44,111 bases of DNA from an uncultured Spirochaetales bacterium (GCA_964631915.1 CAZWAS010000016.1:1-44111), one strand, 5' to 3'. Shown: positions 16,734-42,394, counted from the first letter of the stretch. Program-made: numbers and translations. Notes: generated by a model from the letters alone, not told the origin.

Positions 16734-16780
16734 TTGACAGATACTACGCATAGGTCTATCATTAGATGTGTGGTCAGGCC
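16734..16780 (+). promoter_or_regulatory. Promoter of the gntR-led operon plus shared operator motif (site 2)
   Basis: A8 tract, TTGACA (16734-16739), 17 nt, TATCAT (16757-16762), 8 nt, TGGTCAGGCC (16771-16780). Confidence 0.6.
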
Positions 16781-16839
16781 AGTATGCCAACGAACCTCTT
16801 GATAGATTTGCTGGTTAGTGCTGTTGATCGGGGAGCGAT

Positions 16840-17556
16840 ATGTTCGAACAAGTACAGCCTCAAAAATATTATATGCAGATCGCTCGGCAGATACGCAATC
16901 TGATACGAGACGGCAAACTCAAGGTGGGGGATCAACTGCCTCCGGAGCGCAGCCTCGCTATACAGTTCAACGCTTCCAGGGCCAGCATACGGGAAGCTTT
17001 AAGCGCGCTCGAGATGCTCGGCCTCATAGAGTGTAAGGGGGGGCAGGGGAATTTCATTAAGGCAGACGGTTCCGAAGGAACGATCGATGGGGAACTCCTT
17101 AAGACACTGCTCAGGGATCATGATCCATATGAGATATTCGAGGCTCGACTCGAAATGGAACCGAACCTCGCCGCTCTCGCTGCTGATCGAGCCACCGACC
17201 AAGAACGAAAAAAGCTCCAGTCCCATGTGCAGAAACTCAAAGACTTGGGAGTGAAACTGAAAAGCGATCCAGCATTCATCGATGAATACATGGAAGAGGA
17301 TCGGAAATATCATCTTGAGATAGGCAGATGTGCACATAATAGCGTGCTGTTCACGGTTTTTTCCGGGGTGAACCTGATGATGAAAGAAATGCATTGGAAG
17401 GTGATGAAAAGCAGAGGTCTTGCAACTCAGGAAAACGTGGAAGCGTATGAAAAAGAGCATGAAGCAATTTTGGACGCGATATTGGCGAAGAATCCGAAGC
17501 TTGCTCACGCGGAGATGAAGAAACACATTCTCATTTTGAAGAAGACTTTATTTTAA
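16840..17556 (+). CDS. GntR-family transcriptional regulator, FadR/FCD subfamily
   Basis: N-terminal winged HTH (LPPERSLAIQFNASRASIREALSALEMLGLI) and a helical C-terminal FCD-like domain (EARLEMEPNLAALAA...H). Confidence 0.85.
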   Translation: MFEQVQPQKYYMQIARQIRNLIRDGKLKVGDQLPPERSLAIQFNASRASIREALSALEMLGLIECKGGQGNFIKADGSEGTIDGELLKTLLRDHDPYEIFEARLEMEPNLAALAADRATDQERKKLQSHVQKLKDLGVKLKSDPAFIDEYMEEDRKYHLEIGRCAHNSVLFTVFSGVNLMMKEMHWKVMKSRGLATQENVEAYEKEHEAILDAILAKNPKLAHAEMKKHILILKKTLF

Positions 17557-17657
17557 CACACGCACGAGATACATACACGGAGAATATCGATAGGGCGGAA
17601 TGAGGCCTGAGTATATCACTATATTCGAACGGGTTTACAACGAGAAGGAGGAAGACC

Positions 17658-18551
17658 ATGTTGAAGGGAACCGATGTGAAAGGAGTTATTCCTGCGATAG
17701 TAACGCCTTTTACGAAGAATGATGAAGTGGATTTGAAAGGCATCGAAAAGATTACAAAATTCCTTGTTGATAACGGAGTGCATGCGCTCATGCCGGTGGG
17801 AGGTACGGGCGAATTCCCGAGTCTGCTTCGTGAAGAAAAACGGGATGTGGTGGCCGCGGTCGCGAAGATCGCGAAAGGTAAAATACCCATCATACCGGGA
17901 ACCGCTGCATGCAGCACGAGAGAAGTCATCCTGCTTTCCAATGAAGCTGCTGAAGCGGGAGCGGATGCTGTTATCGTCACTGCGCCGTACTATTTCAAGC
18001 TGCCGGACAGTTCTCTGCTGCAGCACTACAAAACGGTTGCAAAGAATATCGACTGCCCCCTCATTGTGTACAACAATCCACTGTATACGGGAAACCCCAT
18101 GAGTCCGCAGCTCATCGCAGAGCTGATGGGTGTTAAGAACATCATAGGCGTGAAGCAGAGCTGTACGGACATGGGGCAGCTCGTAGAGATGATCCGCCTT
18201 TCGCCGAAAGGCCAATCGCTGTGCACCGGCATCGACAGCCAGTTCTATCCTGCACTTTGCGTGGGAGCGGTCGGCGTATACTCTTCGGCGGCATGCGTCA
18301 TCCCCGCACAGATGGTGAAGTTATATAAACTCTTCACCGAAGGTAAGCACAAGGAAGCGCTCGAGCTCCACATGAAACTTCAGTCTCTGAACAAGTATCT
18401 CGAGTACGATCCCGGATACGTAGCGCCTGCAAAAGAGGCTCTCAACCTCATGGGGCTTCCTGGCGGATATCTCAGAGCACCTCTGCCTGAATTGACCCAG
18501 GAGGAGAAAACTGGTATCAAAGCTGCATTGAAGGAAATTAGTTCCCTCTGA
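17658..18551 (+). CDS. DapA/DHDPS-family class I aldolase/lyase (specific reaction unknown)
   Basis: GGTGEF, YNNPLYTG and the Schiff-base lysine in IIGVKQS. RBS GAAGGAGG. Confidence 0.8.
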   Translation: MLKGTDVKGVIPAIVTPFTKNDEVDLKGIEKITKFLVDNGVHALMPVGGTGEFPSLLREEKRDVVAAVAKIAKGKIPIIPGTAACSTREVILLSNEAAEAGADAVIVTAPYYFKLPDSSLLQHYKTVAKNIDCPLIVYNNPLYTGNPMSPQLIAELMGVKNIIGVKQSCTDMGQLVEMIRLSPKGQSLCTGIDSQFYPALCVGAVGVYSSAACVIPAQMVKLYKLFTEGKHKEALELHMKLQSLNKYLEYDPGYVAPAKEALNLMGLPGGYLRAPLPELTQEEKTGIKAALKEISSL

Positions 18552-18579
18552 CGAACTGGCGGATACACGGGAGGTGCGT

Positions 18580-20649
18580 ATGAAACTGCGAATGGGAGTA
18601 GATACCGGAGGAACGTTCACCGATTGTGTCGTTATAGACGAAAAGGGCACAATCCATACATTCAAAGAACTCTCGACTCCGAAAGATCCCTCCATCGGGC
18701 TTTACAATGTCATAAGGAAAGCCGCAGGGTATTTCAAAAAAGATCTGAGGAGCTTCCTGGGCGATCTAGATTTCTTCGCCCACGGTACTACCGTTGCGAC
18801 GAATACTCTTCTTACAGGAACCGGAGCCAAGACGGGATTGATCCTTACAAAGGGTTTCCGCGACACGCTTGAAATGCGGAGGGCTCATAAAGAGAACATA
18901 TGGGACCTGTATCTTCCTGTTCCTTCTCCCCTGGTTCCTCGCTATCTCAGGCTAGGAGTCACAGAGCGGATCGATTATAAAGGTGATATTATACAGCCTC
19001 TTGTAGAAGAGGATGTATACAGGATCTGCGAGTTTTTCAAAAAAGAGCAGGTGAAAGCCGTTGCAATCTGTACGCTGTTTTCCTTTCTCAACGATACGCA
19101 CGAAAAGCGGATACGGGACATCGTGGCCAAAGAAATGCCTGACGCGTTCATATCCATATCTTCCGAAGTTCTTCCACAGATACGCGAATATGAACGTATG
19201 TCGACTACCGTATCGAACGCGTATGTCGGTCCGAAACTCACCGTGTATCTTTCCACGCTCGAAAAAAAACTCAAGGATGACGGACTAAAGCGGGCATTTT
19301 ATATCACCGCTTCGAACGGCGGCGTTATGACCGCCGAAACCGCCATAAGGCACGCTTCAGCCACGCTGCTCTCTGGCCCTGCCGCCGGAGCAGTAGGAGG
19401 CATGTTCTTCGCCGACCTTCTTAAACGCGGGAATCTGATCATTATGGACATGGGCGGAACCTCTTTCGATGTCACATTAGTGAGCGGAGGCAAGGTCACC
19501 CTCAGTACAGAAGGGGAGATAGCCCGGTACAGAGTCGCGAAACCCATGATAGACATCAACACGATCGGAGCAGGCGGAGGTTCCATAGCGTGGATCGATT
19601 CAGGCGGTATGCTCAAGGTGGGACCCGCCTCTGCAGGATCGGATCCCGGGCCTGTGTGCTACGAATTGGGAGGTACGAAGCCTACGGTTACGGATTCCAA
19701 CCTCCTGCTCGGATACCTCGACAAGGATTATTTCCTCGGCGGCGAGATGAAGGTGAACGAGGAGAAGACACGAGAGGCCATGAGGCGGGAAATCGCGGAT
19801 CCGCTCGGTATTTCCGAAACGGAGGCTGCATCCGGCATTTTCAGGATCATCAATCAGAGCATGGCGGATGCGACAAAGGTCGTATCCGTACAGCGGGGGC
19901 ACGATCCGCGCGAATACGCATTGGTGAGCGCCGGAGGGGCCTGTTCCATACACGCATGCAAGATCGCCGAAGAGGTGGGATCTGAATGCGTCATAGTACC
20001 AAAGGCAGCGAGCGTGTTCTGCGCCTTGGGGATGCTCGAATCCGACATCAGGCTCGACAATGTGAAAACGTATAACGCGTTCATACCCGGAATAGATCTT
20101 GCGGATTTCAATGCGGTCATCGAAGCAGTGGAAAAGCAGGCGCTCAAGGAACTTCTGCAGGAAGGAGTCGAACGGGAACGGGCCCACCTGGTCCGGTATC
20201 TCGATATCCGCTATGTCGGACAACACCATGAGGTGACTGTCGAGATTCCTGCAGGATGCAGACTCGAGGACAAGCATCTTTCGATCATCGCCGACGCTTT
20301 CCACAAGGCGCATGAAAGGCTCTACACGTATTCTACGCCAGAGAATCCCCTCGAAGTGATGAATCTCAGGATCACTGCAGTGGGTTCTGTGGATAAGACC
20401 GGCCTCTTCGAGATTGCAGCGAGTTTGTCCGATCCTTCAGCCGCATACAAAGGAAAACGGAAGGTCTATTTCGAAGAGAAAAACGGATTCTTCGAAGTAC
20501 CCGTATACAATAGGGATCTGCTCAAGCCGGGTAATAGAATACCCGGCCCTGCGGTCATAGAAGAGCGCATCACCACCATCATCGTCCATCCGAAATGGGA
20601 TTCCTTTGTGGACAGCTATCAGAATATCATCATGGAGGTGAGGAAGTGA
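18580..20649 (+). CDS. hyuA: Hydantoinase/oxoprolinase family, A subunit (ATP-dependent)
   Basis: N-terminal GVDTGGTFTD, later DMGGTSFD. About 690 aa. Start at ATG 18580 after GGGAGG. Confidence 0.85.
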   Translation: MKLRMGVDTGGTFTDCVVIDEKGTIHTFKELSTPKDPSIGLYNVIRKAAGYFKKDLRSFLGDLDFFAHGTTVATNTLLTGTGAKTGLILTKGFRDTLEMRRAHKENIWDLYLPVPSPLVPRYLRLGVTERIDYKGDIIQPLVEEDVYRICEFFKKEQVKAVAICTLFSFLNDTHEKRIRDIVAKEMPDAFISISSEVLPQIREYERMSTTVSNAYVGPKLTVYLSTLEKKLKDDGLKRAFYITASNGGVMTAETAIRHASATLLSGPAAGAVGGMFFADLLKRGNLIIMDMGGTSFDVTLVSGGKVTLSTEGEIARYRVAKPMIDINTIGAGGGSIAWIDSGGMLKVGPASAGSDPGPVCYELGGTKPTVTDSNLLLGYLDKDYFLGGEMKVNEEKTREAMRREIADPLGISETEAASGIFRIINQSMADATKVVSVQRGHDPREYALVSAGGACSIHACKIAEEVGSECVIVPKAASVFCALGMLESDIRLDNVKTYNAFIPGIDLADFNAVIEAVEKQALKELLQEGVERERAHLVRYLDIRYVGQHHEVTVEIPAGCRLEDKHLSIIADAFHKAHERLYTYSTPENPLEVMNLRITAVGSVDKTGLFEIAASLSDPSAAYKGKRKVYFEEKNGFFEVPVYNRDLLKPGNRIPGPAVIEERITTIIVHPKWDSFVDSYQNIIMEVRK

Positions 20650-22403
20650 AATCCGAAAGAAAAAAAGAGTTTGAAGGCGCGAACGATCCCATAACCCTTT
20701 CAGTCATCTACAATCGGCTTCTCACCATCAACCAGGAAATGGGAATAACCATGATCAACACCTCCATTTCCCCCATTTTCGCGGAGGTACACGATTTTTC
20801 CTGCGCCATCTGCGATTGGGACAACAGGATAGTGGCTCAAATCGACGGCGTGCCGTCGCATACTGCTTCCGCTATGGAAGCAGTGAAGGCCATAAGCAGG
20901 GAATTCAAAGGCGACATACATCCAGGGGATGTGTTCGTGCTGAACGATCCGTATCTCGGAGGAACCCACTTGCCCGATGTCACGATCATGAAGCCGATAT
21001 TCTTTGACGGCGAACTCCAGTTCATAGCGATCAACAGAGCTCACCACGGGGATGTCGGAGGCATAGAGCCGGGCTCTTACGCGCCGAGCGCAAGGGAGCT
21101 TTTTCATGAAGGCATACGGATTCCGCCGCTCCGCATTTACAAGAATGAGAAACCCATCATGGATGTGGTAAACATGATCAGGATCAACACGCGGATGCCT
21201 GATGCATTATGGGTCGACATGAAGGCCCAAGTCGCATCGTGCAGGGTTGCGGAAAAGCGCATCATAGAGCTGATTTCCAAGTACGGCGTTGCGAAAACCC
21301 GCGCTACCGTGGAGGATATCCATCTGTATGCGGAACGCAGAATGCGCAAGGAAATCGAAAAGCTCAAAGACGGCGTATACGAAGGGGAAGTTTTCCTCGA
21401 TTCGGACGGTTTTTCCGATAATCCGATCAGGATCAAAGTCAGCATTACGGTGAAGGGCGACGAGGCGTTCGTCGATTTCTCAGGATCCGATCCTCAGGTA
21501 ACGGGCTTTGTCAATTCGCCCATGGCGAACACCGCCACCTGTGTGTACGTCGCATTCCTCACCACGGTGACGACGCCGGACATTCCGCATAACGAGGGAG
21601 TATATCGGCCAATCCATATAACGGCTCCGGAAGGTTCCGTCGTTAATCCGCGATTTCCCGCTCCCGTAGCTTCCTGTACGCTCGATACCGCATGTGCGAT
21701 TCTCGAAGCCTGTTGGATCGCATTGTCAAAGGTGCTTCCCGAACGGGTACCCGCCGGATGGAACCGATGGAACGGACCCACGATCACGGGTATAGATCCG
21801 CGGAATAACAATTTTTATGTCATGTTTGGATTCAACGGATTCGGCGGGGCCGGAGGCATGCCTGGCATGGACGGCAGGCATTATATAGGAGACGGCATAG
21901 ATTTGGGCGGCCTCATAGCGCCGAACATCGAAACGAACGAAAAGGATTATCCGCACATCACGGAGTTCAACGAGTTTACGATGGATTCCTGCGGCGCGGG
22001 AAAATTCCGAGGCGGATGCGGAGCGAAATACAGGCTGAAGGTCTACGACGAGTCTCCAACCCTTGTCATGTTCGGCGACGGGAAAAAGAATCCGCCGTAC
22101 GGGTTGTTCGGGGGACAACCGGGTTCGTGCAACAAAGCGTTTATCAACGAAGGTATGCCTTCCGAGCGGGAACTGAAAGCTAAAGAGTCGGTGGTTCTCG
22201 CAAAAGGCGATACCTATACTTCGTACCCGTCGGGCGGTGGCGGTTGGGGAAATCCGAAAGAACGCGATCCGGAGCTGGTGCGAATGGACGCCAGAAACGA
22301 AATCATTTCCCGCGAAAGCGCGGAGAAGCTCTACGGCGTCGCTCTCGAAGGCGATGATTACCGTATCAATCTGGAAAAAACTAAATTCTTGCGGAGCAAA
22401 TGA
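20646..22403 (+). CDS. hyuB: Hydantoinase/oxoprolinase family, B subunit
   Basis: The GTG start overlaps the hyuA stop (GTGA). N-terminal DPITLSVIYNRL, NDPYLGGTHLPD. Confidence 0.85.
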   Translation: MKSERKKEFEGANDPITLSVIYNRLLTINQEMGITMINTSISPIFAEVHDFSCAICDWDNRIVAQIDGVPSHTASAMEAVKAISREFKGDIHPGDVFVLNDPYLGGTHLPDVTIMKPIFFDGELQFIAINRAHHGDVGGIEPGSYAPSARELFHEGIRIPPLRIYKNEKPIMDVVNMIRINTRMPDALWVDMKAQVASCRVAEKRIIELISKYGVAKTRATVEDIHLYAERRMRKEIEKLKDGVYEGEVFLDSDGFSDNPIRIKVSITVKGDEAFVDFSGSDPQVTGFVNSPMANTATCVYVAFLTTVTTPDIPHNEGVYRPIHITAPEGSVVNPRFPAPVASCTLDTACAILEACWIALSKVLPERVPAGWNRWNGPTITGIDPRNNNFYVMFGFNGFGGAGGMPGMDGRHYIGDGIDLGGLIAPNIETNEKDYPHITEFNEFTMDSCGAGKFRGGCGAKYRLKVYDESPTLVMFGDGKKNPPYGLFGGQPGSCNKAFINEGMPSERELKAKESVVLAKGDTYTSYPSGGGGWGNPKERDPELVRMDARNEIISRESAEKLYGVALEGDDYRINLEKTKFLRSK

Positions 22404-22417
22404 TAAAGGGGGAATGT

Positions 22418-23554
22418 ATGGCTGACATAAAAAGGGTTGCTGTATTGGGAGCAGGAAGCGGGGGATTCATGTGCGCCGCGGATATGGGAAGTCTCGGCTA
22501 TGAAGTGGCCCTGTTTTCGCGCGATATGGCTAGAGTAAAGGGTGTGAAGGAAAAGGGAAGCATCGAAGTGCTCGACATAGACTCCAAGCCCACGGGAATG
22601 GCGGGGAAAATAGCCCTGGTGACCAGCGACATCAAAGAAGCTGTCAAAGGTGCTCAAGTCATCCTGAATCCGATCCCGTACTTCGCGTGTGAAGAATACG
22701 CCCGACTCGTGGCTCCCCATCTCGAAGAAGGACAGACGGTGATCTATCTCGGCAAAGGAGGAGCATGCCTCACCTGGGCAAAGGTCCTCAAAGAGCTTGG
22801 CATAAAGAAAAAGGTCTATCTCGCGGATACGAATACGCTTCCCTACGGTGCTTCCAGAAAAGGCGAATATCAGGTAAGGCTCGAAAACAGAACGCAGAAC
22901 CTGATACTCGGAACCTTCCCGGGCAAAGACGTCGACCGCGTGGCGGATACCGCATACAAGCTCTTCACTAAAGAGCACGGATACGAAATACGCAAAGGAC
23001 AGAACGCCATAGACTCGATCCTCGTGGATTACAATGCGATTACCCACACGCCGCCTATGATCTGCAATGCGGCGCGTATAGAGTCCGGCGAAAAGAATTT
23101 CTTCCTGTTCGGAAAAAAAGAAAACACTCCGGGAGTGGTTAGACTCATCGAGCGGATAGATAGGGAACGGATGGCGATCGGAAAAGCTCTCGGCATGAAA
23201 CAGTACACCCTTGAAGAAGAAATCATGATGGTGAAGTGGAATCCTCACGGCGAAACGTATGTTCTCCCACTTTACGAGGCGATCCACACCCCATTTCTCG
23301 AAGTATGCGAAGGGCCCTATACGCTGGACACTCGGCATCTGAAGGAAGACGTTCCTTACGGGCTCGTCACCTATTCCTCTCTGGGCAACATGCTTGGAGT
23401 GCCGACTCCTGTGACGGACGCCATAATAACGCTCGCTGAAGGGCTTTTAGACAGAGATTTCCGGAGCATGGGTAGAACCGTGGAAGCTATGGGCATAGAC
23501 CCGAAATGGTCGGTAGAGCAGCTCAAGAAATATCTCAAAGAAGGAGTCGTCTGA
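22418..23554 (+). CDS. NAD(P)-dependent opine (octopine/nopaline) dehydrogenase family protein
   Basis: Rossmann VAVLGAGSGG. C-terminal family pattern HTPPMICNAARIE...IDRERMAIGKALG...KEDVPYGLV...LGVPTPVTDAII. Start at ATG 22418 (AAGGGGGAA upstream). Confidence 0.7.
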   Translation: MADIKRVAVLGAGSGGFMCAADMGSLGYEVALFSRDMARVKGVKEKGSIEVLDIDSKPTGMAGKIALVTSDIKEAVKGAQVILNPIPYFACEEYARLVAPHLEEGQTVIYLGKGGACLTWAKVLKELGIKKKVYLADTNTLPYGASRKGEYQVRLENRTQNLILGTFPGKDVDRVADTAYKLFTKEHGYEIRKGQNAIDSILVDYNAITHTPPMICNAARIESGEKNFFLFGKKENTPGVVRLIERIDRERMAIGKALGMKQYTLEEEIMMVKWNPHGETYVLPLYEAIHTPFLEVCEGPYTLDTRHLKEDVPYGLVTYSSLGNMLGVPTPVTDAIITLAEGLLDRDFRSMGRTVEAMGIDPKWSVEQLKKYLKEGVV

Positions 23555-23560
23555 ACGGTC

Positions 23561-34327: not shown

Positions 34328-34329
34328 GT

Positions 34330-36159
34330 ATGGCGAGCAGCATGTACGATACCCTGCTCCGCATCGATTGTGGAAAAAAAAGTTCAGTACCGGTGCAGGT
34401 CGGAGGAGAGCTGAAGTCATACATCGGAGGCATGGGATATGGGACAAAGATCCTCATCGATGAAGTCGATCCGAAAGCCGATCCTCTGTCCGCTCAGAAC
34501 AAGATCGTGTTGACAGTAGGACCACTCACCGGCACTACGGCACCGATGTTTCCGCAGGCTTGTATAGTCACCAAGTCGCCACTCACAAAAAGCATTTTGA
34601 ACTGCTATGCAGGTGGTTTTCTCGGTGCCGAAGTGAAATTCTGTGGACTCGACGGAATAATCCTCGAGGGGAAAGCCGACCAGTGGAGCCTCATACTCGT
34701 GGAGGACCGCAAGGTGAGTTTCCACGATGCTGGGCCGGTCATGGGCAAGAGCACGCACGAAACCGAAGCGTACATGAAGAAGAAATTCGGAAGCGATGTG
34801 AAGACCCTTTCCATAGGCGTGGCTGGAGAGAAGGTGGTTGCCATGTCCTCGATCTTCTCCGAAACGAGGACCTTCGGCAGAGGCGGCGCCGGAGCAATCC
34901 TCGGCTCGAAGCGCATAAAAGGCATGGCGTTCCGGGGTACGCGGGGAGTCGATGTGTTCGATCGAAAGCGGTTCGCGGAACTTGTGAACGAAAACGTCGA
35001 AGGTATAAAGGCCGCATGCAAAGAAGAGCATAACCTCGTGGGCATGTTCTCCCGCGTCGGTACCGGTGCAGGAATGGGGCTCATAAACCGCAAAGGAGCT
35101 CTCGCTACGAAAAATCATCAGTATGGAAGTTTTCCCGAAGGTTCAGCGATAGACGGATACGCGTATGCGAAAAATTTCTACACGCGCGCCATTTCCTGCT
35201 ATGGATGCCCTGTGCACTGCGGCATGCTGCATAAATACCGGAGACCGGACAATTCGGATGCGTGGCTACGCGGACCTGAATACGAAACCATGTTTTCCCT
35301 CGGATCCGACCTTCTGAATGACGATCCTGTAACGCTTGCCGACGCAAACCAGCTCTGCGAGGATTACGGTATGGATACGCTCACCGTAGGAGTCACCATA
35401 GCGTGGGCGTTCGAAATGGCAGAGAAGGTGATCCTCAAAGATCCTGATCTGCCGCTCAAGTTTGGAGACAGGCCTTCTATTCTAGGACTCATTCGGAAAA
35501 TAGGAGAGCGCGAGGGAATCGGCAACCTGCTGGCGGAAGGTCCTAAGATAGCTGCAGAGAAAACGGGGAAAGAAACCGTAGGGGCTGCCATGCAGATCAA
35601 GAATTCCGGATTTGCTGCATGGATGCCGCGGCGCATGAAGGGAGTCGCTCTCTCGTTTGCGACTTCCAACCGCGGAGCTTGCCATAAGCGGGCGCCTATC
35701 GGCGCCGAAATAATGGGTGCCATAGACATGGATTCGTATGACGGAAAAGCTCAAATAGTGAAAGATATTCAGGATACGGTGAATGCCGTTTTCACGTTGG
35801 TGGCATGCAGATTCCACGAATTCATAAGCCCGAAGGAATTATATCCGCAGTTGGTGGAGGCTGCGACAGGCGTTCATATGAGCCTTGACGAATTCATAAA
35901 AGTGGGGGAGCGCATCTGGAACTTAGAACGGATTTTTAATATCGGCGCCGGATTCACGAGAAACGACGACAATCTTCCGGAACGCTGTTTCGAACCTATA
36001 AAAGGCGAAGCTTCCCAGGGAGCTGTATTGGATAAAAAGAAATTCGCGGCCATGCTGGACGAATACTATACGTTGCGCGGATGGGATCTCGAAGGCAAGC
36101 CAACTCCTGCAACGCTTAAGCGACTAGGAATCGAGGAATACGCGAGGTTTATAACATGA
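34330..36159 (+). CDS. Aldehyde:ferredoxin oxidoreductase family (tungsten/molybdopterin AOR)
   Basis: About 609 aa. AOR N-terminal domain pattern (LLRIDCG...GGMGYGTKIL). [4Fe-4S] ligands CYGCPVHC. The track start 34186 overlaps the ferredoxin gene, so ATG 34330 was chosen. Confidence 0.8.
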   Translation: MASSMYDTLLRIDCGKKSSVPVQVGGELKSYIGGMGYGTKILIDEVDPKADPLSAQNKIVLTVGPLTGTTAPMFPQACIVTKSPLTKSILNCYAGGFLGAEVKFCGLDGIILEGKADQWSLILVEDRKVSFHDAGPVMGKSTHETEAYMKKKFGSDVKTLSIGVAGEKVVAMSSIFSETRTFGRGGAGAILGSKRIKGMAFRGTRGVDVFDRKRFAELVNENVEGIKAACKEEHNLVGMFSRVGTGAGMGLINRKGALATKNHQYGSFPEGSAIDGYAYAKNFYTRAISCYGCPVHCGMLHKYRRPDNSDAWLRGPEYETMFSLGSDLLNDDPVTLADANQLCEDYGMDTLTVGVTIAWAFEMAEKVILKDPDLPLKFGDRPSILGLIRKIGEREGIGNLLAEGPKIAAEKTGKETVGAAMQIKNSGFAAWMPRRMKGVALSFATSNRGACHKRAPIGAEIMGAIDMDSYDGKAQIVKDIQDTVNAVFTLVACRFHEFISPKELYPQLVEAATGVHMSLDEFIKVGERIWNLERIFNIGAGFTRNDDNLPERCFEPIKGEASQGAVLDKKKFAAMLDEYYTLRGWDLEGKPTPATLKRLGIEEYARFIT

Positions 36160-37001
36160 AGTATATCATACCTGAAAGCCTCGAAGCTGCATGCAGGGCG
36201 CTGGCTTCCGCGGATTCGTTCCGTGCACTTGCAGGTGGGACCGATCTTGCAGTGGTCATAGCGGATACGCTTAACATGCCCGAAGCCTTGGTCGATATTT
36301 CGGCTCTCCGAGAACTCAACGGCATGGATTTCTCCCAAGAGGGACTCGTCATCCGAGCGTGTACACGCATTGCGGATATTGCAGCTGCAGAGAAGCTTCC
36401 GCTCTGCCTCGTGCAGGGAGCCTCGTCCATAGGCTCCCCCCAGATACGCAATCTCGGCACCATCGGCGGCAATGTGTGCAACGCATCTCCTTGCGGAGAC
36501 ACGCTTGCGCCGCTCGTATGCCTCGATGCGAAATTCGTGCTCGTCTCCATTTCGGGAAAACGCGAGGTCCCTGCGGAGGAGTTTTTCCTCGGACCGAAGA
36601 AGACGGTGCTGAAGGGCGGAGAGCTGCTCGCAGAAATCAAGATAGACAAACGGCACTTGTCCGGTACTTCCTCTTTCAGGATGATAGGAAAGCGCAACGG
36701 TCAGGTTATTTCCCAGGTGAACGCATCCGTATGGCTTTCGCTCACAGGAAGTACGATCGAGGATATCAGGGCAGCTGTGGGGTCGGTAGCGCCTGTCCCG
36801 CTCAGGCTTACAGCGACCGAAGCATATTTGAAAGGCAGAAAACGGGGGAATATCGATTTCACGGAAGTCGGAAGAATCATCAATACGGAAATTAAACCCA
36901 TTTCGGATGTGAGAGCTTCCGAGGAATACCGTAGGCTTGTGACGGTATCACTTTTCCGGGAAGTCTTGGAAGAAGCGCTCAGCAGCGGAAAGGGGGAGTG
37001 A
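36156..37001 (+). CDS. Molybdenum hydroxylase FAD-binding subunit (XdhB/CoxM/YgfM-like)
   Basis: LAGGTDLAV motif. 281 aa. The start overlaps the AOR stop (ATGA). Confidence 0.8.
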   Translation: MKYIIPESLEAACRALASADSFRALAGGTDLAVVIADTLNMPEALVDISALRELNGMDFSQEGLVIRACTRIADIAAAEKLPLCLVQGASSIGSPQIRNLGTIGGNVCNASPCGDTLAPLVCLDAKFVLVSISGKREVPAEEFFLGPKKTVLKGGELLAEIKIDKRHLSGTSSFRMIGKRNGQVISQVNASVWLSLTGSTIEDIRAAVGSVAPVPLRLTATEAYLKGRKRGNIDFTEVGRIINTEIKPISDVRASEEYRRLVTVSLFREVLEEALSSGKGE

Positions 37002-37004: not shown

Positions 37005-37484
37005 ATGCAGATCACGTTCATATGCAACGGCGAACAGGTGAGTGTCGAAGCAGCTCCGGACATGAGGGCGCTCGACCTCCTCCGCGATACACTCGGACTC
37101 ACCGGTACCAAGGAAGGTTGCGGACGCGGGGAATGCGGCGCCTGTACGATTCTGCTCGACGGTGCTCCTGTGAATGCATGCCTAGTGTATGCCGCGAAAC
37201 TCAATGGAAGAACAGTTGAGACCATCGAAGGCCTATCCTCTAACGATGGAAAACTTCATCCGATACAGGAGGCCTTTCTCGATGAAGGGGCTGTGCAATG
37301 CGGTTACTGCACTCCTGGCATGGTGATGAGCACAAAGGCGCTTCTCGACAAAAATCCGAAACCCACTGTTGCGGACATCGAAGAGGCGTTGAGCGGAAAT
37401 TTCTGCCGCTGTACAGGATACGCGAAGATCGTGAAAGCCGTGCAGAAGGCTGCAGGTACGAAGACCGGAGGTGCACATGAATAA
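37005..37484 (+). CDS. Molybdenum hydroxylase [2Fe-2S] subunit
   Basis: GCGRGECGACTILLDG, CGYCTPGM, CRCTGY. Confidence 0.9.
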   Translation: MQITFICNGEQVSVEAAPDMRALDLLRDTLGLTGTKEGCGRGECGACTILLDGAPVNACLVYAAKLNGRTVETIEGLSSNDGKLHPIQEAFLDEGAVQCGYCTPGMVMSTKALLDKNPKPTVADIEEALSGNFCRCTGYAKIVKAVQKAAGTKTGGAHE

Positions 37485-39762
37485 CGAACCACTCCGCGTT
37501 GTGGGAAAGCGCGTTAGGAAGATCGATGCGTACGAGCTTGTAACCGGCAAGGCGAAATTCACGGGCGATATGCGGTTTCCGGGAATGCTGTACGGGTATG
37601 CGGCCAGGTCTTCTGTTTCTGCGGGAACCATCAGGCGCATCGACGTATCGAAGGCAGCTGAAAGCGACGATGTGGTGTTCGTCATGACGGGAAAAGACAT
37701 ACCCGGCCCGAACATCATAGGCATTCTTCCTCCTCTGGATCAGCCTGTGCTGGCCACCGAGGTTATTCGCTACGCAGGCGAATCCGTAGCCTTAGTGGTC
37801 GCAAAGACTCAGCTCGCTGCAAAACGGGCGGCTCGGAAGGTTTCGCTTGAAGTCGACGAACTCGTACCGATCTTCACGATCGACGAAGCCCTCAAGGAAG
37901 GGGCGCGGAAGATACATGCATCCGGGAATATAACCTTTTCCAAGAAACTGATCAAAGGCGATGTGCAGAAAGGCTTTAAAGAAGCAGATGTGATCCTTGA
38001 AGACACATTTGAAACATCGAATCAAGAGCATGCATACCTCGAACCAGAAGTGGTGTGCGCAGTTCCGTCAGGAGACGGCCGTATCACCGTATATGCTTCC
38101 TGCCAGTCGCCGTTTCATATCCGTGGACATATAGCGTCCAACCTGAACGTGCCGGTCTCGCAGGTGAAGGTGATACAAGCGTACACAGGCGGTTCGTTCG
38201 GCGGTAAGGACGATGTTGCTACGGAAATCGGAGCGCTCGCCGCAATTGCTGCATGCAAGCTCGGGAAACCGATCATGATAGCCCATGAGCGGGACGAGTC
38301 TATCATAGGGAGCAATCTGCGCCATGCATCGCGGATCACAGTGAAAACCGGTGCCAAAAGAGATGGCACTATAGTCGCTCGGGAAATACGAGTGCTCCTC
38401 GATGGGGGAGCGTATGCATCCGAGAGCCCCTTCGTCACGATGAAGGCGCTCATCCATGCTGCAGGACCGTATAAGATCGATAACGTATTCGTGGAATCCA
38501 CCGCCGTGTACACGAACAAAACCTACTGTGGAGCGTTCAGGGGATTCGGAGTGCCTCAGGTTACCTTTGCATCGGAATCCCAAATGGACGAACTGGCTAA
38601 GCGGCTTTCCATGGATCCTGTGGAACTGAGGATGAAGAACGCACTGAAACCCGGGGATACCACGGCTACGGGCCAATCCTATAAGCAATCGGTCGGCCTC
38701 ATTGAGACCATCAAACGCATTCAGGAGAAACGCATCGCTCATCAGCTTCCGAAGAACGACGGCCGCTGGTTGTACGGACGGGGCGTTTCGTGCATGCTTC
38801 AGGGCATTTCGAACGGTGCAGAAGGCATCGACGTCGTAGGAGCCCATGTCCAGGTGTGCCAGGACGGCAGTGCCATCGTAGGAGTCGGCCTGACGGAGCT
38901 CGGTCAGGGGGCGCGGACAGTGTACGCCCAAATCGCGGCAGAGGTGCTTGGTATTTCCCTCGAAAAAGTGACCGTGAAGCAGGTGGATACGGACTCGGTG
39001 CACGATTCGGGACCTACGGTGGCTTCCAGAAGCACTACGGTAGGCGGTATGGCGGTGAAACTCGCTGCGGAGGAAGTGAAGAAGTCTCTCGTTTCCATGG
39101 CAGCCCTCATGTTTAAAGTCGAAGAAAAGCTTATAATATTGAAAGAAAATTTTGCGGTACTCGCGGTAGACGACAAGGCGCGGATACCGCTGAAAGATGT
39201 GGCGGTTGCCGCATATTGGACGGGTTTTCCGCTCATGAACCTCGCGTTTTCCAAAGCTCCGCCTTCGAACTACGATCACGATACGCATCAGGGCGACATA
39301 TACATCGCCTATAACTTCGGAACCCATCTCATGGACATTAGGATAGACAGGTTCACCGGCAGCGTCGAAGTCCTGCGCCACTATGCCGCCCACGATGTGG
39401 GAAAGGTCGTAAACCCCATGGGACTCGAAGGACAGGTCGAAGGGGCTTCCCTCATAGGGTTCGGTCTCGCACACATGGAGGATATCATCTACCGGGAAGG
39501 AAAGATCATCAATGCGAATTTCGCGGATTATGCGATTCCTTCTATTAAAGACCGCCTTCCTACGGAAACGATCCCTGTGGAAGATCCCAATCCTCACGGC
39601 CCTTTCGGTGCAAAAGGAGTGGGAGAACCGCCTGTTGCGGGTGCGGCATCCGTATTCGCGAATGCGGTGGCTGCGGCCACAGGCATACGATTTAAGAAGT
39701 TGCCCATCACGCGGCAGGATATTTTGAAGGCGCTTGAGGAGTTGGGCAATTCCGGACGATAA
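37477..39762 (+). CDS. Molybdenum hydroxylase large (molybdopterin-binding) subunit, xanthine-dehydrogenase family
   Basis: 761 aa. YTGGSFGGKDD Moco motif. Aldehyde-oxidase/XDH a/b-hammerhead N-terminus (VVGKRVRKIDAYELVTGKAKFTGD). ATG 37477 overlaps the upstream gene by 8 nt. Confidence 0.85.
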   Translation: MNNEPLRVVGKRVRKIDAYELVTGKAKFTGDMRFPGMLYGYAARSSVSAGTIRRIDVSKAAESDDVVFVMTGKDIPGPNIIGILPPLDQPVLATEVIRYAGESVALVVAKTQLAAKRAARKVSLEVDELVPIFTIDEALKEGARKIHASGNITFSKKLIKGDVQKGFKEADVILEDTFETSNQEHAYLEPEVVCAVPSGDGRITVYASCQSPFHIRGHIASNLNVPVSQVKVIQAYTGGSFGGKDDVATEIGALAAIAACKLGKPIMIAHERDESIIGSNLRHASRITVKTGAKRDGTIVAREIRVLLDGGAYASESPFVTMKALIHAAGPYKIDNVFVESTAVYTNKTYCGAFRGFGVPQVTFASESQMDELAKRLSMDPVELRMKNALKPGDTTATGQSYKQSVGLIETIKRIQEKRIAHQLPKNDGRWLYGRGVSCMLQGISNGAEGIDVVGAHVQVCQDGSAIVGVGLTELGQGARTVYAQIAAEVLGISLEKVTVKQVDTDSVHDSGPTVASRSTTVGGMAVKLAAEEVKKSLVSMAALMFKVEEKLIILKENFAVLAVDDKARIPLKDVAVAAYWTGFPLMNLAFSKAPPSNYDHDTHQGDIYIAYNFGTHLMDIRIDRFTGSVEVLRHYAAHDVGKVVNPMGLEGQVEGASLIGFGLAHMEDIIYREGKIINANFADYAIPSIKDRLPTETIPVEDPNPHGPFGAKGVGEPPVAGAASVFANAVAAATGIRFKKLPITRQDILKALEELGNSGR

Positions 39763-39805
39763 AACGCTTGTCCGGATCGACACGCGGATTGAAGGGGAGG
39801 TAGGT

Positions 39806-41185
39806 ATGGCTCTGCTCATAAAGAACGGTCTTGTGGTCACGTTCGACAAGGATGCTCTGAACGGCAGGATTATCGAAAACGGTGCGGTGGCAATCGAAGG
39901 GGACAGGATTCTCGAACTCGGCGATACGGCATCGTTGGAGAAAAAGTATGCAAGCGCTTCCAGAATCATAGACGCGACCGGCAAGATCGTGATGCCTGGT
40001 TTCATCATCACCCACACTCATATGCCCTATGTTCTTGGTCACAATCAGCCTGTGGATGTCACCCAGCTTCGGAGCTTCTGGGACATGCTGCAGAAGATGG
40101 GATGGGAATGGCTCGAGGATCTGACGACTCAGGAAGGTATTTATGCAGCCACCAGATATGCCGCCATGAAAATGCTGAAGAGCGGAACCACGACGGTCTG
40201 CGATCTAGTAGAAGGCCCGAACGCGATTCCCGGCGCGCTTTCAGCGAGCGTGAAGGCCATAGAGGAAACAGGCATACGAGCTCAGCTCGGTTACGAAGTT
40301 ACGGAGAGGATCCCCGGCATTTCCATTCTGGAAAAGCTCGACAGAAAAATGGCCGAGCGCGGATTCGACGAGAACTTGAAACTCCTGGACCAGTTCCCAC
40401 CGAAGGCCGGCAAGCGGATACAGGCCCGTCTCGGAGTGCATACTGCATACACCAACTCGTTTGAAACGCTGAAAAAGGCGCGGCAGATCGCCGATTCCTA
40501 CGGGTGCGGAATCCAGATCCATATAGCGGAGATCCCCCGTACCTTTCTCATTGAGAAATACGGCAAATCGGCTCCCATGGTGCTCGAAGAACAAGGGCTT
40601 CTCGGGCCGGATGTGGTGGCGGCGCACTGCATAGACATCACGGACGAAGACCTTGCGATACTGAAGCGGAACAAGGTTAATGTGGCGCACACGCCCATGA
40701 CCAATTCGCTCGGCGGAAACGGCGTGGCGAGAGTTCCGGATATGGTGAATGCGGGCATGAACGTGACCATAGGACACGATTGTTTTTTCACCCTGGACAC
40801 TTCGGAATACTTCAGATATGCATATCTCGTGCATAAGGCGCATAACGCGAATCCGATGCTGCTCCCTCCGTTTCAAGTACTGGATATGGTGCTCGGGAAT
40901 GCGGCGAGGGCTTTAGGCCTGGCGGACAAAATCGGAAGTCTATCTCCGGGCAAAAAGGCGGATATCCTCATCGTCGCTCCGGACAGTCCTGTGCCGGTGA
41001 ATGCGTCTTCAGTCATTTCCTACTACACCATGACCTTTCTCGGAAAGGATGTCGAAACCGTGCTCGTGGACGGAAACGTTGTGGTGGATAAGGGCAGGAT
41101 GACGACTGTGGACGAAGAAGAAGTCAAGCGGTCCTGTGTCGAAGAAGCGCGGAAGCTGTGGCGGAAAAATGGAATACGGGTCTGA
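39806..41185 (+). CDS. Amidohydrolase-superfamily enzyme (SsnA / MtaD / chlorohydrolase-deaminase type)
   Basis: LLIKNGLVVT...AVAIEGDRI...IDATGKIVMPGFIITHTHMPY (HxH metal motif), with later HIAE and GHD. Start at ATG 39806 after GAAGGGGAGG. Confidence 0.75.
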   Translation: MALLIKNGLVVTFDKDALNGRIIENGAVAIEGDRILELGDTASLEKKYASASRIIDATGKIVMPGFIITHTHMPYVLGHNQPVDVTQLRSFWDMLQKMGWEWLEDLTTQEGIYAATRYAAMKMLKSGTTTVCDLVEGPNAIPGALSASVKAIEETGIRAQLGYEVTERIPGISILEKLDRKMAERGFDENLKLLDQFPPKAGKRIQARLGVHTAYTNSFETLKKARQIADSYGCGIQIHIAEIPRTFLIEKYGKSAPMVLEEQGLLGPDVVAAHCIDITDEDLAILKRNKVNVAHTPMTNSLGGNGVARVPDMVNAGMNVTIGHDCFFTLDTSEYFRYAYLVHKAHNANPMLLPPFQVLDMVLGNAARALGLADKIGSLSPGKKADILIVAPDSPVPVNASSVISYYTMTFLGKDVETVLVDGNVVVDKGRMTTVDEEEVKRSCVEEARKLWRKNGIRV

Positions 41186-41209
41186 ACATATAGCAGTAAG
41201 GAGCAATAC

Positions 41210-42394
41210 ATGGCAGTGAATCTTAAAACCGAATTCTGCGGTCTATCGTTCAAGAATCCTATCATCGTCCCTGCAGGAGTGCACGGAAGGGACGGGAAGA
41301 CTATCAAAACGGTGAGCGAATCCGGAGTTGCAGGCATCTGCACCAAGACGATCGTGTCCCAGCCTGCGCCCGACGTTTTGCCTTGTTTTCAGGCAGTGAA
41401 ATCCGGGATGATCAATTCGGTATTCGGCTCGGACAAACCTTCTCAATATTGGTTCGAGGAAGGCATAAAACAGGCAAAGGAAGGCGATGCACTGGTCATC
41501 GCGAACCTTGCGGGGTTTTTCCCTGAAGAAGCAGCGGAGCTTGCGCTGAAGGCTGCCAATGCCGGAGCGGATATGATCGAGGTTCCCACCCATTGCCCGC
41601 ATATGGGAGAAATTCTCATGGCTATGTTCCCCGGCCTCTCTATGCCGGAACCGAAACTGACAGATCTTGAACCCATGAAGCGTTCCGTGAAGCTCATTAA
41701 ACAGGCAGTGAAGATTCCCGTCGTCATAAAACTTTCAGGAACTTTCTCGCATATTGTCAGGGAATGGGCGATCGGAGTGAAGGAATCGGGTGCAGACGGC
41801 ATAGCGTGCTCGGATGCTTTGGGGCCTGCTCTTTCCATCGATATCCGCACCGGAGAGCCGAAGCTCGGAGGCCCCAGAGGCGTCGGAGGCCTTACCGGCC
41901 CTGCAATCATGCCCATAACGCTTAGGATGGTGCTAGACATAGCTCTGGCAATCGATCTGCCCATCGTAGGCGTAGGGGGAGTAAGCACTGCAGCGGATGT
42001 AGTCGAATACCTCATGGCCGGCGCCACGCTTGTCGGTGTGTGCACAGCAGGCCATATGAAGGGCATCGAACAGTACGGTAAGATCATCCGCGATCTCGAG
42101 AAACTCCTCGGAGAATTGGGAGCTTCGAGCCCGGCCGATGTCCGGGGGCTTGCGCTGAAACGGATCCGTGGACGGAAGGAGCGGGGTTTAGTTGCCGTCA
42201 CGAAACCTATAGTCCCTGACATCGACAGGGATCTCTGCACCTCATGCGGCCGATGTCAAGAAGTATGCGCGTACGATGCAGCTCGAGTGGATGGAAAAAA
42301 TAAAGCATATATTATAGCTGAAAACTGCATCGGATGCGGCCTTTGCGTAAGCGTTTGTCCTACCAGAGCCATGACACAGGAATACTATCGTTGA
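41210..42394 (+). CDS. Dihydroorotate/dihydropyrimidine dehydrogenase-family flavoprotein (PreA-like) with a C-terminal 2x[4Fe-4S] domain
   Basis: LSFKNPIIVPAG, the active-site-loop analogue THCPHMGE, GVGGVSTAADV, and C-terminal CTSCGRCQEVC and CIGCGLCVSVCP. Confidence 0.8.
   Translation: MAVNLKTEFCGLSFKNPIIVPAGVHGRDGKTIKTVSESGVAGICTKTIVSQPAPDVLPCFQAVKSGMINSVFGSDKPSQYWFEEGIKQAKEGDALVIANLAGFFPEEAAELALKAANAGADMIEVPTHCPHMGEILMAMFPGLSMPEPKLTDLEPMKRSVKLIKQAVKIPVVIKLSGTFSHIVREWAIGVKESGADGIACSDALGPALSIDIRTGEPKLGGPRGVGGLTGPAIMPITLRMVLDIALAIDLPIVGVGGVSTAADVVEYLMAGATLVGVCTAGHMKGIEQYGKIIRDLEKLLGELGASSPADVRGLALKRIRGRKERGLVAVTKPIVPDIDRDLCTSCGRCQEVCAYDAARVDGKNKAYIIAENCIGCGLCVSVCPTRAMTQEYYR

Follow-up and report, generated by a model that had tools for sequence, protein, structure and literature searches.

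We analysed a 44,111-nt stretch of DNA from an uncultured Spirochaetales bacterium (GCA_964631915.1 CAZWAS010000016.1:1-44111; the whole stretch is hereafter called the window), in which 20 consecutive genes at positions 16840-42394 of the plus strand bring together ring-opening enzymes, a carbamoyltransferase, a molybdenum (Mo) hydroxylase and a Grd-type selenoprotein reductase. As listed in Table 1, this island runs from gntR to a gene resembling PreA and UacX. Apart from the regulator, a DapA-family lyase and a transketolase-like enzyme, its genes fall into a front block (HyuAB for ring opening, opine-type dehydrogenase and carbamoyltransferase), a middle Grd block, and a back block of ferredoxin, aldehyde:ferredoxin oxidoreductase (AOR), Mo hydroxylase, amidohydrolase and reductase. 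According to the open reading frame (ORF) listing, with start codons picked by ribosome-binding site and homologue length, merely two gaps exceed 50 nt, one of 101 nt between the GntR and DapA genes (17557-17657) and one of 92 nt between those of the opine-type dehydrogenase (ODH) and the carbamoyltransferase (23555-23646). Nine junctions overlap or measure at most 5 nt, namely HyuA/HyuB, HyuB/ODH, transketolase/GrdB', GrdE'/thioredoxin reductase (TrxR), thioredoxin (Trx)/GrdCD, ferredoxin/AOR, AOR/XdhFAD and, within the Mo hydroxylase, FAD/FeS and FeS/Mo subunit. The original prediction, made from the bare sequence, had described a 20-gene single-strand island with these two gaps and at least seven tight junctions, and the ORF listing and start choice bear this out; all the gene families it had named were likewise recovered by Pfam and NCBIfam.

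Table 1. Features of the island and of its immediate upstream neighbours in the window. Figures joined by < or > are model score and cut-off; percentages are identities.
Feature	Position	Strand	Evidence and remarks
MocA-like molybdenum cofactor cytidylyltransferase	13534..14106	+	Pfam NTP_transf_3; TIGR03310 154 < 186; 36% to E. coli MocA
Carbamate kinase, own promoter and operator-like motif	14109..15062	-	TIGR00746 396.6 > 358; 45% to E. coli YqeA
Operator-like palindromic motif, core TGGCCTGACCA	15092-15108	.	just 3' of carbamate-kinase -10
Class-III (omega-amine) aminotransferase	15159..16502	-	divergent from gntR; Pfam Aminotran_3; NF004426 559 > 552
Promoter-like site TTGACA-17-TATCAT	16734-16762	+	upstream of gntR; 16734 is the -35 start
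Operator-like motif TGGTCAGGCCAGTA	16771-16784	+	just 3' of gntR promoter -10
GntR/FCD-family transcription regulator	16840..17556	+	Pfam GntR and FCD; cluster head, 51-77% in relatives
DapA/DHDPS-family lyase	17658..18551	+	PF00701; TIGR00674 227 > 206; optional
HyuA, alpha subunit of ATP-dependent hydantoinase/oxoprolinase/lactamase	18574..20649	+	Pfam Hydant_A_N, Hydantoinase_A, Hydant_A_C
HyuB, beta subunit	20646..22403	+	PF02538; GTG start overlaps HyuA stop; 79-87% in relatives
Opine-type (CENDH-like) NAD(P) dehydrogenase, ODH	22400..23554	+	PF02317; start overlaps HyuB stop
Perfect 10-bp hairpin, then UGUGUUUU (T-tract)	23561-23602	+	ODH-carbamoyltransferase gap; -13.2 kcal/mol, z -1.5
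Ornithine carbamoyltransferase (OTC)-like carbamoyltransferase	23647..24648	+	TIGR00658 270.9 < 280.85; putrescine carbamoyltransferase (PTCase) 234 < 500; YgeW 85 < 500
Transketolase-family thiamine diphosphate (ThDP) enzyme, full length	24661..26685	+	NF004559 626 > 488; optional
GrdB' selenoprotein B	26685..28004	+	PF07355; TIGR01918 485; UGA at 27732-27734
GrdE' substrate-binding subunit	28023..29333	+	PF09338; GrdG 280 < 780; FarE 150 < 675
Thioredoxin reductase (TrxR) with C-terminal thioredoxin-like domain lacking CxxC	29339..30520	+	TIGR01292 326.5 < 343; optional
GrdA selenoprotein A	30531..31001	+	PF04723; NF040748 247.6 > 130; UGA 30663-30665
Thioredoxin (Trx), CETC active site	31018..31338	+	PF00085; clostridial TrxA model 127 < 140
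GrdC-GrdD fused (protein C), 860 aa	31331..33913	+	NF040746 657 > 450; NF040747 408 > 350
Polyferredoxin-like 4Fe-4S protein	33926..34327	+	37% over 70 residues to E. coli YgfT
Tungsten/molybdenum AOR	34324..36159	+	PF02730 and PF01314
Mo-hydroxylase FAD subunit (XdhFAD)	36156..37001	+	PF00941 and PF03450; XdhB models below cut-off
Mo-hydroxylase 2x[2Fe-2S] subunit	37005..37484	+	PF01799 and PF00111
Mo-hydroxylase molybdopterin subunit, xanthine dehydrogenase (XDH)-like	37471..39762	+	PF01315, PF02738, PF20256; all equivalog models below cut-off
Amidohydrolase, SsnA/TRZ-ATZ/MtaD group	39806..41185	+	TIGR03314 258 < 455; 26% to E. coli SsnA
PreA/PydA/UacX-like FMN reductase, two C-terminal 4Fe-4S clusters, no FAD/NAD partner	41210..42394	+	PF01180 and Fer4; PreA 185 < 335

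The arrangement in relatives was compared by tblastn of all window proteins against fetched loci (numbered L001 and upwards). GrdE' has its nearest relatives, at 74-83% identity, exclusively in Spirochaetota metagenome-assembled genomes (MAGs) from fens and sediments. The same gene order was found in at least ten species-level Spirochaetota MAGs (L012, L014, L020, L022-L027 and L029) as well as on the metagenome contigs L001-L006 and L035, with proteins 45-88% identical. This shared order comprises GntR, HyuA, HyuB, ODH, carbamoyltransferase, GrdB', GrdE', GrdA, Trx, GrdCD, Mo hydroxylase, amidohydrolase and reductase, with the minus-strand aminotransferase in front; the latter occupies the same position, at 67-71% identity, in L004, L020, L023-L025 and L027. 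Because the order is conserved in many genomes, the arrangement is non-random, and the conservation check that the original prediction had proposed turned out in its favour.

Conservation does not extend to every gene. DapA is present in L001, L012 and L029 and the transketolase in L001, L012 and L026, while L004-type loci lack both as well as TrxR; AOR is missing from L001 and L012 and was found in the majority of the remaining loci, among them the methyltransferase variants described below. The cluster is real and conserved, but the proposal of a single whole-island pathway is not upheld in the form given, since it is not indivisible: DapA, transketolase, TrxR and ferredoxin-AOR have each been dropped in some relatives. 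This dispensability, together with a hairpin and T-tract between the ODH and carbamoyltransferase genes, would be expected if unrelated operons had come to lie side by side by chance in one genome. However, at least ten species-level MAGs, and also a second phylum, show the same order with the same tight spacing, and nine junctions are overlapping or at most 5 nt long, which makes chance juxtaposition exceedingly improbable; it is essentially excluded. As a side observation, L029 (1000-19582) shows frameshift-like breaks in GntR, HyuA, TrxR, GrdCD, XdhFAD and XdhMo. Its apparently divergent GrdE (46% identity) was therefore set aside, and both the breaks and the divergence are probably long-read assembly errors.

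The best sigma-70-type promoter matches of the region lie upstream of gntR on the plus strand and upstream of the class-III aminotransferase and carbamate kinase genes on the minus strand, that of the kinase at 15145-15117. The operator-like motif TGGTCAGGCCAGTA follows the gntR promoter, and the copy at the carbamate-kinase promoter is an imperfect version of it with 2-3 mismatches. Hence the earlier suggestion that the kinase stands under the same operator motif as the island agrees with what we found at both promoters. The kinase and aminotransferase genes are on the minus strand and outside the 16734-42394 span; in L035 the same pair is again adjacent to, and divergent from, gntR, accompanied by an XdhC-family chaperone gene. 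A third copy, with 2 mismatches, of the operator-like motif AACCGGCCTGACCA was seen past the island end at 43011-43024, 3' of a cupin gene (42475-42939).

The hairpin in the ODH-carbamoyltransferase gap (Table 1) is a possible terminator or attenuator that would divide the island into two transcription units. Because of this hairpin and its T-tract, a single transcript is not assured. In relatives this gap is either far shorter or missing. No riboswitch was detected by an Rfam scan of the window and 11 related loci; as the scan returned only SECIS_4, a tRNA and tRNA-Sec, RNA offers no clue to the ligand.

In the middle block, two genes carry in-frame UGA codons. A hairpin lies directly downstream of the grdB' UGA, where the Rfam selenocysteine insertion sequence model SECIS_4 matches positions 27735-27772 directly 3' of the TGA (33.2 bits, E 3e-4; the gathering score of 38 was just missed), and GrdB' keeps the U-x-x-C-x-x-C motif (STUGTCTRC). 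The TGA of grdA stands in the canonical CxxU context ECFV-U-TAAG. No energetically outstanding hairpin was found 3' of this second UGA; selenocysteine (Sec) decoding in grdA is suggested by the conserved context and by the gene calls of relatives, which are broken at the same point. TrxR bears a C-terminal extension (approximately residues 310-390) with a weak Pfam Thioredoxin match at 310-385, and the same fusion occurs in those relatives that keep TrxR. The fused GrdC-GrdD protein would form an acyl-phosphate; such a fusion was also reported in Clostridium sp. FS41 (PMC4417704). Judged by its genes, the Grd system is complete, with A, B', E', fused C-D, Trx and TrxR all found as had been claimed. 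It appears to be of uncharacterised specificity, because GrdB' and GrdE' miss all substrate-specific cut-offs (for GrdB', GrdF 481 < 800, GrdB 453 < 602 and GrdH 422 < 775; for GrdE' see Table 1).

GrdE' differs from the canonical proteins at the residue on which their chemistry depends. Canonical GrdE has two conserved cysteines for the autocatalytic formation of a pyruvoyl group, which activates glycine and sarcosine as Schiff bases, while GrdI (betaine) and FarE (fluoroacetate) have no processing Cys and act on substrates that need no Schiff base (PMC10838667). At the processing position, where canonical members read SGN-C-VSAC, GrdE' has Tyr248 in the context SGN-Y-VWP, and this Tyr is found throughout the GrdE' clade. 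The GrdE sequences of E. acidaminophilum and C. sticklandii should likewise agree with the processing-Cys account. An alignment of 130 representatives of the whole PF09338 family, gathered by exhaustive HMMER search, showed Tyr at this position in 61 of them, GrdE' and a sister clade from Bacillota included. The motif SGN-C-VSAC-DK occurred in only a few 50%-identity clusters, which score 412-631 bits on the GrdG model, so that most of the sequence diversity of PF09338 is probably non-pyruvoyl and uncharacterised. The original prediction had expected GrdB'/GrdE' to cleave a glycine derivative on the way to an acyl-phosphate; the missing pyruvoyl-precursor Cys makes glycine or sarcosine as such less likely to be the substrate of Grd', which most likely carries a leaving group requiring no imine chemistry. 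A solved structure of GrdE' does not exist, and for the other enzymes there are family-level relatives only.

The GrdB'/GrdE' clade is 74-100% identical among spirochaetes and 51-56% identical to the Bacillota sister clade, with no characterised member. Loci of the sister clade (L007 5295-11323; L009 7511-15502; L011 3089-13566) lie beside Fe-alcohol dehydrogenases and AOR or aldehyde dehydrogenases (ALDHs), with no ring-opening enzymes adjacent; the best model for these ALDHs is betaine-aldehyde dehydrogenase, which indicates likeness only. The Tepidimicrobium Grd locus also adjoins a sigma-54/mannose-type phosphotransferase (PTS-Man) system with aldolases and a SIS protein. Such neighbours would fit a supply route X-CH2-CH2OH -> X-CH2-CHO -> X-CH2-COOH, X being a substituted nitrogen, and the sister clade looks like another uncharacterised Grd substrate class. 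It was not established to be an ordinary betaine reductase, as its GrdB partners also fall below the GrdH cut-off. The names of cluster members were generic and carried neither substrate labels nor further taxonomic information.

How tightly the Grd block belongs to its neighbours can be judged from two kinds of variant locus. In the spirochaete loci L015, L016 and L028, Grd stands on its own in the order tRNA-Sec, selA, selB, short-chain dehydrogenase/reductase (SDR), GntR, GrdB'E', TrxR, GrdA, Trx and GrdCD, with neither the ring-opening nor the Mo block adjacent; a Bmp transporter gene follows in L028, the sole locus of the three that extends far enough. Conversely, L031, L032 and L034, which were found via the carbamoyltransferase, keep HyuAB-ODH-carbamoyltransferase and ferredoxin-AOR-Mo hydroxylase at 59-79% identity to the window (49-50% for the FAD subunit), while Grd is replaced. 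L031 comes from a Candidatus Bipolaricaulota genome of 1.7 Mb; it has lost HyuA, and its HyuB is truncated. The replacement genes (L031 10001-15950; L032 11033-15533; L034 11039-15554) encode a corrinoid protein, uninterrupted, that is non-pyrrolysine (non-Pyl), MtmB-like and MttB-like methyltransferases, and an ornithine-cyclodeaminase (OCD)-family dehydrogenase whose best model is SbnB (2,3-diaminopropionate biosynthesis). None of these three contigs appeared among the best 120 homologues of the UacX-like protein, all of which are of the spirochaete type. Since front-block genes and the ferredoxin-AOR-Mo hydroxylase part of the back block stay together in L031, L032 and L034 while Grd is exchanged, the two outer blocks form a constant pair and the middle one can be swapped. 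Independent occurrence of the sub-blocks, named at the outset as an observation that would speak against a single pathway, is therefore seen in part.

These variants bear on a Stickland-like explanation, under which front and back blocks oxidise and hydrolyse a heterocycle while Grd serves as an independent sink and ATP module for an imported betaine-type compound; the shared operon would merely co-express the production and use of reductant, and the corrinoid module would fill the slot in acetogenic lineages. Grd' alone with tRNA-Sec, selA, selB, SDR and GntR (and the Bmp transporter in L028), the outer blocks without Grd, and a sister clade that sits next to alcohol dehydrogenases and betaine-aldehyde-dehydrogenase-like ALDHs instead of ring openers would all suit it, as would an Opp-type transporter immediately upstream of grdB' in L026. 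Yet the Grd and methyltransferase modules share one insertion point, between carbamoyltransferase and ferredoxin, with short or overlapping junctions, which is expected if the module acts on the carbamoyltransferase product, and the window has no betaine-type transporter adjoining its Grd genes. We consider this explanation unlikely. Two details of the variant loci should be recorded in their own right: tRNA-Sec, selA and selB lie immediately upstream of SDR-GntR-GrdB'E' (L015 2795-6584; L028 30-3642), and the transporter of L026 (2935-8501) is of the Opp/Dpp ABC type (SBP_bac_5, permeases, ATPases), inserted between transketolase and grdB'.

In the front block, HyuA is 73-81% identical among relatives and scores 735 on the CapA-like model, below its cut-off of 1000. 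ODH is full length, with N-(1-D-carboxyethyl)-L-norvaline dehydrogenase 1bg6 as its best solved relative (E 1e-40), and is flanked by the HyuB and carbamoyltransferase genes in every locus compared. The carbamoyltransferase aligns end to end with Pyrococcus furiosus OTC; STRTR is changed to STRTS and HCLP to HCMP, an insertion stands where OTC has DGNNV, and the DxxxSMG ornithine loop has given way to an insertion. With its score below the TIGR00658 cut-off and the SMG loop replaced, it does not qualify as an ornithine enzyme, in accordance with the original prediction. Metagenomes hold more than 120 close clusters of this protein.

In the back block, the best solved relatives of the Mo subunit are nicotinate dehydrogenase 3hrd, 4-hydroxybenzoyl-CoA reductase (4-HBCR) and xanthine oxidoreductase (XOR). 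Alignment showed that it keeps the FRGFGVPQ and GVGEPP motifs, whose Arg and Glu would correspond to the XDH-type Arg and the catalytic Glu of bovine XOR. The amidohydrolase, presumably of the COG0402 type, is equidistant from several groups, as SsnA, chlorohydrolase and nucleoside/base deaminase models score about equally; its best solved relatives are AtzA, methylthioadenosine/S-adenosylhomocysteine (MTA/SAH) deaminase and 8-oxoguanine deaminase, and it could be either a deaminase or a ring-opening hydrolase. The reductase gene follows directly 3' of it and matches, in architecture only, the UacX/PydAc type described in PMC12507026.

A Bmp/PnrA-type ABC transporter gene lies directly 3' of the UacX-like gene in L033 and in the P0445 locus, where SDR, Zn-alcohol dehydrogenase, FGGY-kinase and DeoC genes come next; elsewhere it follows GrdCD (L028) or stands beside HyuA (L032 and L034). 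Nucleosides and bases are the ligand class of the Bmp/PnrA family. By this analogy the transporters would support a nucleoside- or base-like substrate. The aminotransferase, too, adjoins HyuA in L032 and L034.

Taken together, we favour the explanation that the island is one conserved three-block catabolic cluster, a variant of reductive ureide/nucleobase catabolism to which a new Grd reductase has been added, and we give it an even chance. A nucleobase-type ring with a urea unit, purine- or pyrimidine-like, would be imported by the Bmp/PnrA-type ABC transporter found in relatives. The back block, aided by MocA and XdhC helpers, would dearomatise it and open the first ring by the hydroxylate-reduce-hydrolyse logic of the urate pathway, and HyuAB would then open the remaining hydantoin- or dihydropyrimidine-type cyclic amide with expenditure of ATP. 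The exposed ureido group would be cleaved with phosphate by the OTC-like enzyme, and the co-regulated carbamate kinase would convert the resulting carbamoyl phosphate to ATP. The opine-type dehydrogenase, the class-III aminotransferase and AOR may convert the amine that is left into a glycine-type acid with a substituted nitrogen, X-CH2-COO-, which Grd' would cleave reductively to acetyl phosphate and thereby a second ATP, X being a nitrogen that leaves without a Schiff base, as in betaine. Electrons for Grd' might come from the Mo hydroxylase and AOR via ferredoxin/NAD(P)H, TrxR and Trx. As one example, 3-amino-2-ureidopropionate could be converted by aminotransferase, AOR and decarboxylation to N-carbamoylglycine, whose amide nitrogen is unable to form a Schiff base; this chain would leave the methyltransferase swap unexplained. 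We infer the substrate, the order of the steps, the electron route and the ATP balance, and for the last, two gains against one ATP spent, as originally proposed, this is pure inference. Other substrates were considered and not adopted, as no evidence was seen for them: allantoin/glyoxylate, riboflavin/lumichrome, trigonelline/nicotinate, mannityl or Amadori opines, N-carboxymethyl-lysine, ct6A, nicotianamine, and the formiminoglycine of the classical clostridial route.

Several points weigh against this explanation. Identity to the characterised urate enzymes is low (25-32%), with all specific NCBIfam models below cut-off, and the best solved relative of the Mo subunit is nicotinate dehydrogenase. 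The known urate pathway yields an N-substituted glycine at no step, and its last two enzymes, the peptidase YgeY (PF01546) and the diaminopropionate ammonia-lyase YgeX (PF00291), were found neither in the window nor in related loci. The opine dehydrogenase, DapA and transketolase have no explained roles, and the hairpin with its T-tract separates ODH from the carbamoyltransferase. Grd stands alone in three loci, in L028 with a Bmp transporter, so the other blocks are not required. Finally, the exchange of Grd for corrinoid methyltransferases points to an N-methylated intermediate, which ordinary purines and pyrimidines would not give; combined with the missing pyruvoyl Cys, it points to an N-methylated or cationic glycine derivative such as betaine, dimethylglycine, sarcosine or creatine.

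This last point leads to an explanation based on an N-methylated substrate, either creatinine/N-methylhydantoin or a methylated purine. Here the amidohydrolase would deaminate creatinine or the methylated base, the function of HyuAB would be that of an ATP-dependent N-methylhydantoinase or a creatinine lactamase, and the carbamoyltransferase would take the place of N-carbamoylsarcosine amidase, keeping the energy as carbamoyl phosphate. The resulting N-methylglycine derivative, either sarcosine or the tertiary, cationic nitrogen compound creatine, would be split reductively by Grd' or, in the methyltransferase variants, lose its methyl group to the corrinoid system. HyuAB does fall in the N-methylhydantoinase family, GrdB' and GrdE' match the NCBIfam models for sarcosine, GrdF and GrdG, better than the others, and the genes that replace Grd in L031, L032 and L034, a corrinoid protein with non-Pyl MtmB- and MttB-like methyltransferases, are of the kind that act on N-methyl amines. 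Glycine betaine has two known anaerobic fates, Grd cleavage and corrinoid demethylation, and the lack of the pyruvoyl Cys would suit a tertiary or quaternary nitrogen, as in creatine or betaine. Moreover, an anaerobic route from creatinine via N-methylhydantoin, N-carbamoylsarcosine and sarcosine to sarcosine reductase is known (PMC4417704, PMC5364220). On the other hand, the scores lie far below the GrdF and GrdG cut-offs and barely above those obtained for GrdB and GrdH, and sarcosine itself should require the pyruvoyl group (PMC10838667). Creatinine would leave the constant Mo hydroxylase, UacX-like reductase, AOR, opine dehydrogenase, aminotransferase and Bmp transporter with no role, the amidohydrolase stands closer to the SsnA/TRZ-ATZ/MtaD group than to creatinine deaminases of the CodA type, and creatinine and methylated purines are minor compounds in the fens and sediments from which the MAGs come. 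This route is, in our view, improbable.

Returning to nucleobase-type catabolism, a further reading is that the cluster would encode an energy-conserving fermentation, hitherto undescribed, whose substrate is a cyclic ureide of nucleobase type that may be N-methylated. A new carbamoyltransferase would stand in for hydrolytic decarbamoylation and yield ATP via carbamate kinase, a new non-pyruvoyl class of Grd selenoenzyme would cleave to acetyl phosphate an N-substituted glycine derived from the ring skeleton, and in acetogen-like lineages the Grd module would be swappable for a corrinoid methyltransferase module. For this fuller statement we would put the chance slightly short of even.

Upstream of the island, the MocA-like protein would supply the molybdopterin cytosine dinucleotide (MCD) cofactor to the Mo hydroxylase. 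At 26-4556 a four-gene operon encodes a 2-oxoacid dehydrogenase complex (E1 alpha, cut by the window start, E1 beta, lipoyl E2 and E3), which is unusual beside a strictly anaerobic selenoprotein metabolism. Three genes at 5606-9018 follow, the first for an S-adenosylmethionine (SAM) methyltransferase with Cys-rich termini that ends in CCCSH, the second (6422-7738) resembling radical SAM/SPASM peptide maturases, and the third (7735-9018) for a thioredoxin-thioredoxin reductase fusion; no obvious precursor-peptide candidate was seen near the radical SAM/SPASM gene in 6200-6440. At 9545-11530 lies the gene of a 661-aa sodium:solute symporter that belongs to the monocarboxylate type of ActP/MctC. 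Models match this protein in two separate stretches, a pattern suggestive of a large insertion, and it might move acetate or another pathway-related acid in or out.

The literature search returned no paper describing this gene set, and the original prediction that no known pathway uses the whole of it holds to that extent. Anaerobic breakdown of purines, pyrimidines and ureides outside the gut, and its energy yield, are poorly known: it was not until 2025 that the reductive urate pathway was described, and the genes of the classical clostridial conversion of xanthine to glycine were still unidentified in the 2012 genome study of C. acidurici (PMC3519856). The cluster is widespread in fen and sediment spirochaetes and, if the favoured explanation is true, would tie ring degradation to two substrate-level phosphorylations. 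The non-pyruvoyl Grd class comprises about half of PF09338 sequence diversity, with no characterised member near the GrdE' clade. As most of the GrdE family has no pyruvoyl Cys, the substrate range of Grd-type reductases is probably much wider than the handful of compounds now known. The cluster also gives a handle on three enzymes of uncharacterised specificity, namely the Grd B component, the OTC-fold transferase and the opine-type dehydrogenase, and it shows that a module for reductive cleavage and one for corrinoid-dependent demethylation have been exchanged in nature.

Among known systems, the reductive urate pathway defined by two 2025 studies (PMC12507026; bioRxiv 10.1101/2025.04.24.650524) is the closest in enzyme classes and logic, as represented by the E. 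coli cluster ygeW-ygeX-ygeY-hyuA-yqeA-mocA-ygfK-ssnA-ygfM-xdhD and the UacX/UacY variant of C. difficile. According to these studies, XdhD-YgfM reduces urate to 2,8-dioxopurine; YgfK or the PydA-like UacX, together with SsnA, dearomatises this and opens its pyrimidine ring, the product being ureidomethylhydantoin; the hydantoin ring is next opened by HyuA; phosphorolysis by YgeW releases carbamoyl phosphate, from which YqeA makes ATP; and YgeY and YgeX lead to pyruvate. The enzyme classes shared with the urate clusters are a Mo hydroxylase that has an FAD subunit, a PF01180 reductase of the UacX type lacking an FAD domain, an amidohydrolase of the SsnA group, hydantoin opening, carbamoyltransferase with carbamate kinase, MocA, an XdhC-family chaperone (in L035) and a YgfT-like ferredoxin. 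Island and regulon together thus have a counterpart for each class but YgeY and YgeX, albeit at low identity and with non-orthologous replacements. Identities to the uricolytic island of E. coli K-12 are 26% for SsnA, 32% for XdhA, 29% for XdhD, 25% for YgeW, 36% for MocA and 45% for carbamate kinase. The likeness to the ygeW-ssnA-xdhD region that had been pointed out therefore holds at the level of enzyme classes, but at 25-32% for the SsnA-, Xdh- and YgeW-like proteins it is not orthology. The Mo enzyme of the island is three-subunit and XdhABC-like, whereas that of the urate pathway is the fused XdhD; its Mo subunit is nearer to XdhA than to XdhD and keeps an Arg that XdhD has as Gln. The island further uses ATP-dependent HyuAB instead of the D-hydantoinase HyuA and an OTC-like transferase instead of the knotted YgeW, and has in addition an opine dehydrogenase, AOR, an aminotransferase and a Grd or corrinoid methyltransferase module.

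The known Grd complexes (GrdA, GrdB/E, GrdF/G, GrdH/I, GrdC/D) and FarBE likewise consist of selenoproteins A and B, a PF09338 subunit, protein C, Trx and TrxR, and GrdE' resembles GrdI and FarE in lacking the processing cysteine. The genomic partners found here, HyuAB, the carbamoyltransferase and the Mo hydroxylase, are unprecedented for such systems. Creatinine fermentation in Clostridium sp. FS41 and Tissierella creatinophila shares a deaminase-type amidohydrolase, hydantoin opening, decarbamoylation and a Grd-type reductase forming acetyl phosphate. However, ring opening in those fermenters is ATP-independent or D-hydantoinase-like, in contrast to the ATP-dependent HyuAB of the island, and they employ a hydrolytic N-carbamoylsarcosine amidase and a canonical sarcosine reductase, with no Mo hydroxylase, PydA-like reductase, opine dehydrogenase or AOR. 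Pfam and NCBIfam scans of the island gave no N-carbamoylsarcosine amidase, and the GrdF and GrdG models remained below cut-off.

The arginine deiminase, agmatine deiminase and oxalurate modules (OTC, PTC or OXTCase with carbamate kinase) resemble the island in coupling a phosphorolytic OTC fold to carbamate kinase, but the second-substrate site differs here (no SMG loop, a 160s insertion, STRTS), and the enzyme also scores below the putrescine carbamoyltransferase cut-off. Nicotinate fermentation by Eubacterium barkeri employs a Mo/Se nicotinate dehydrogenase, 6-hydroxynicotinate reductase and enamidase, with no Grd. It likewise applies a hydroxylate-reduce-hydrolyse sequence to an N-heteroaromatic ring, and its nicotinate dehydrogenase, 3hrd, is the solved protein to which the Mo subunit of the island is closest; nicotinate has no urea unit, so that a carbamoyltransferase and carbamate kinase would have no role in that route.

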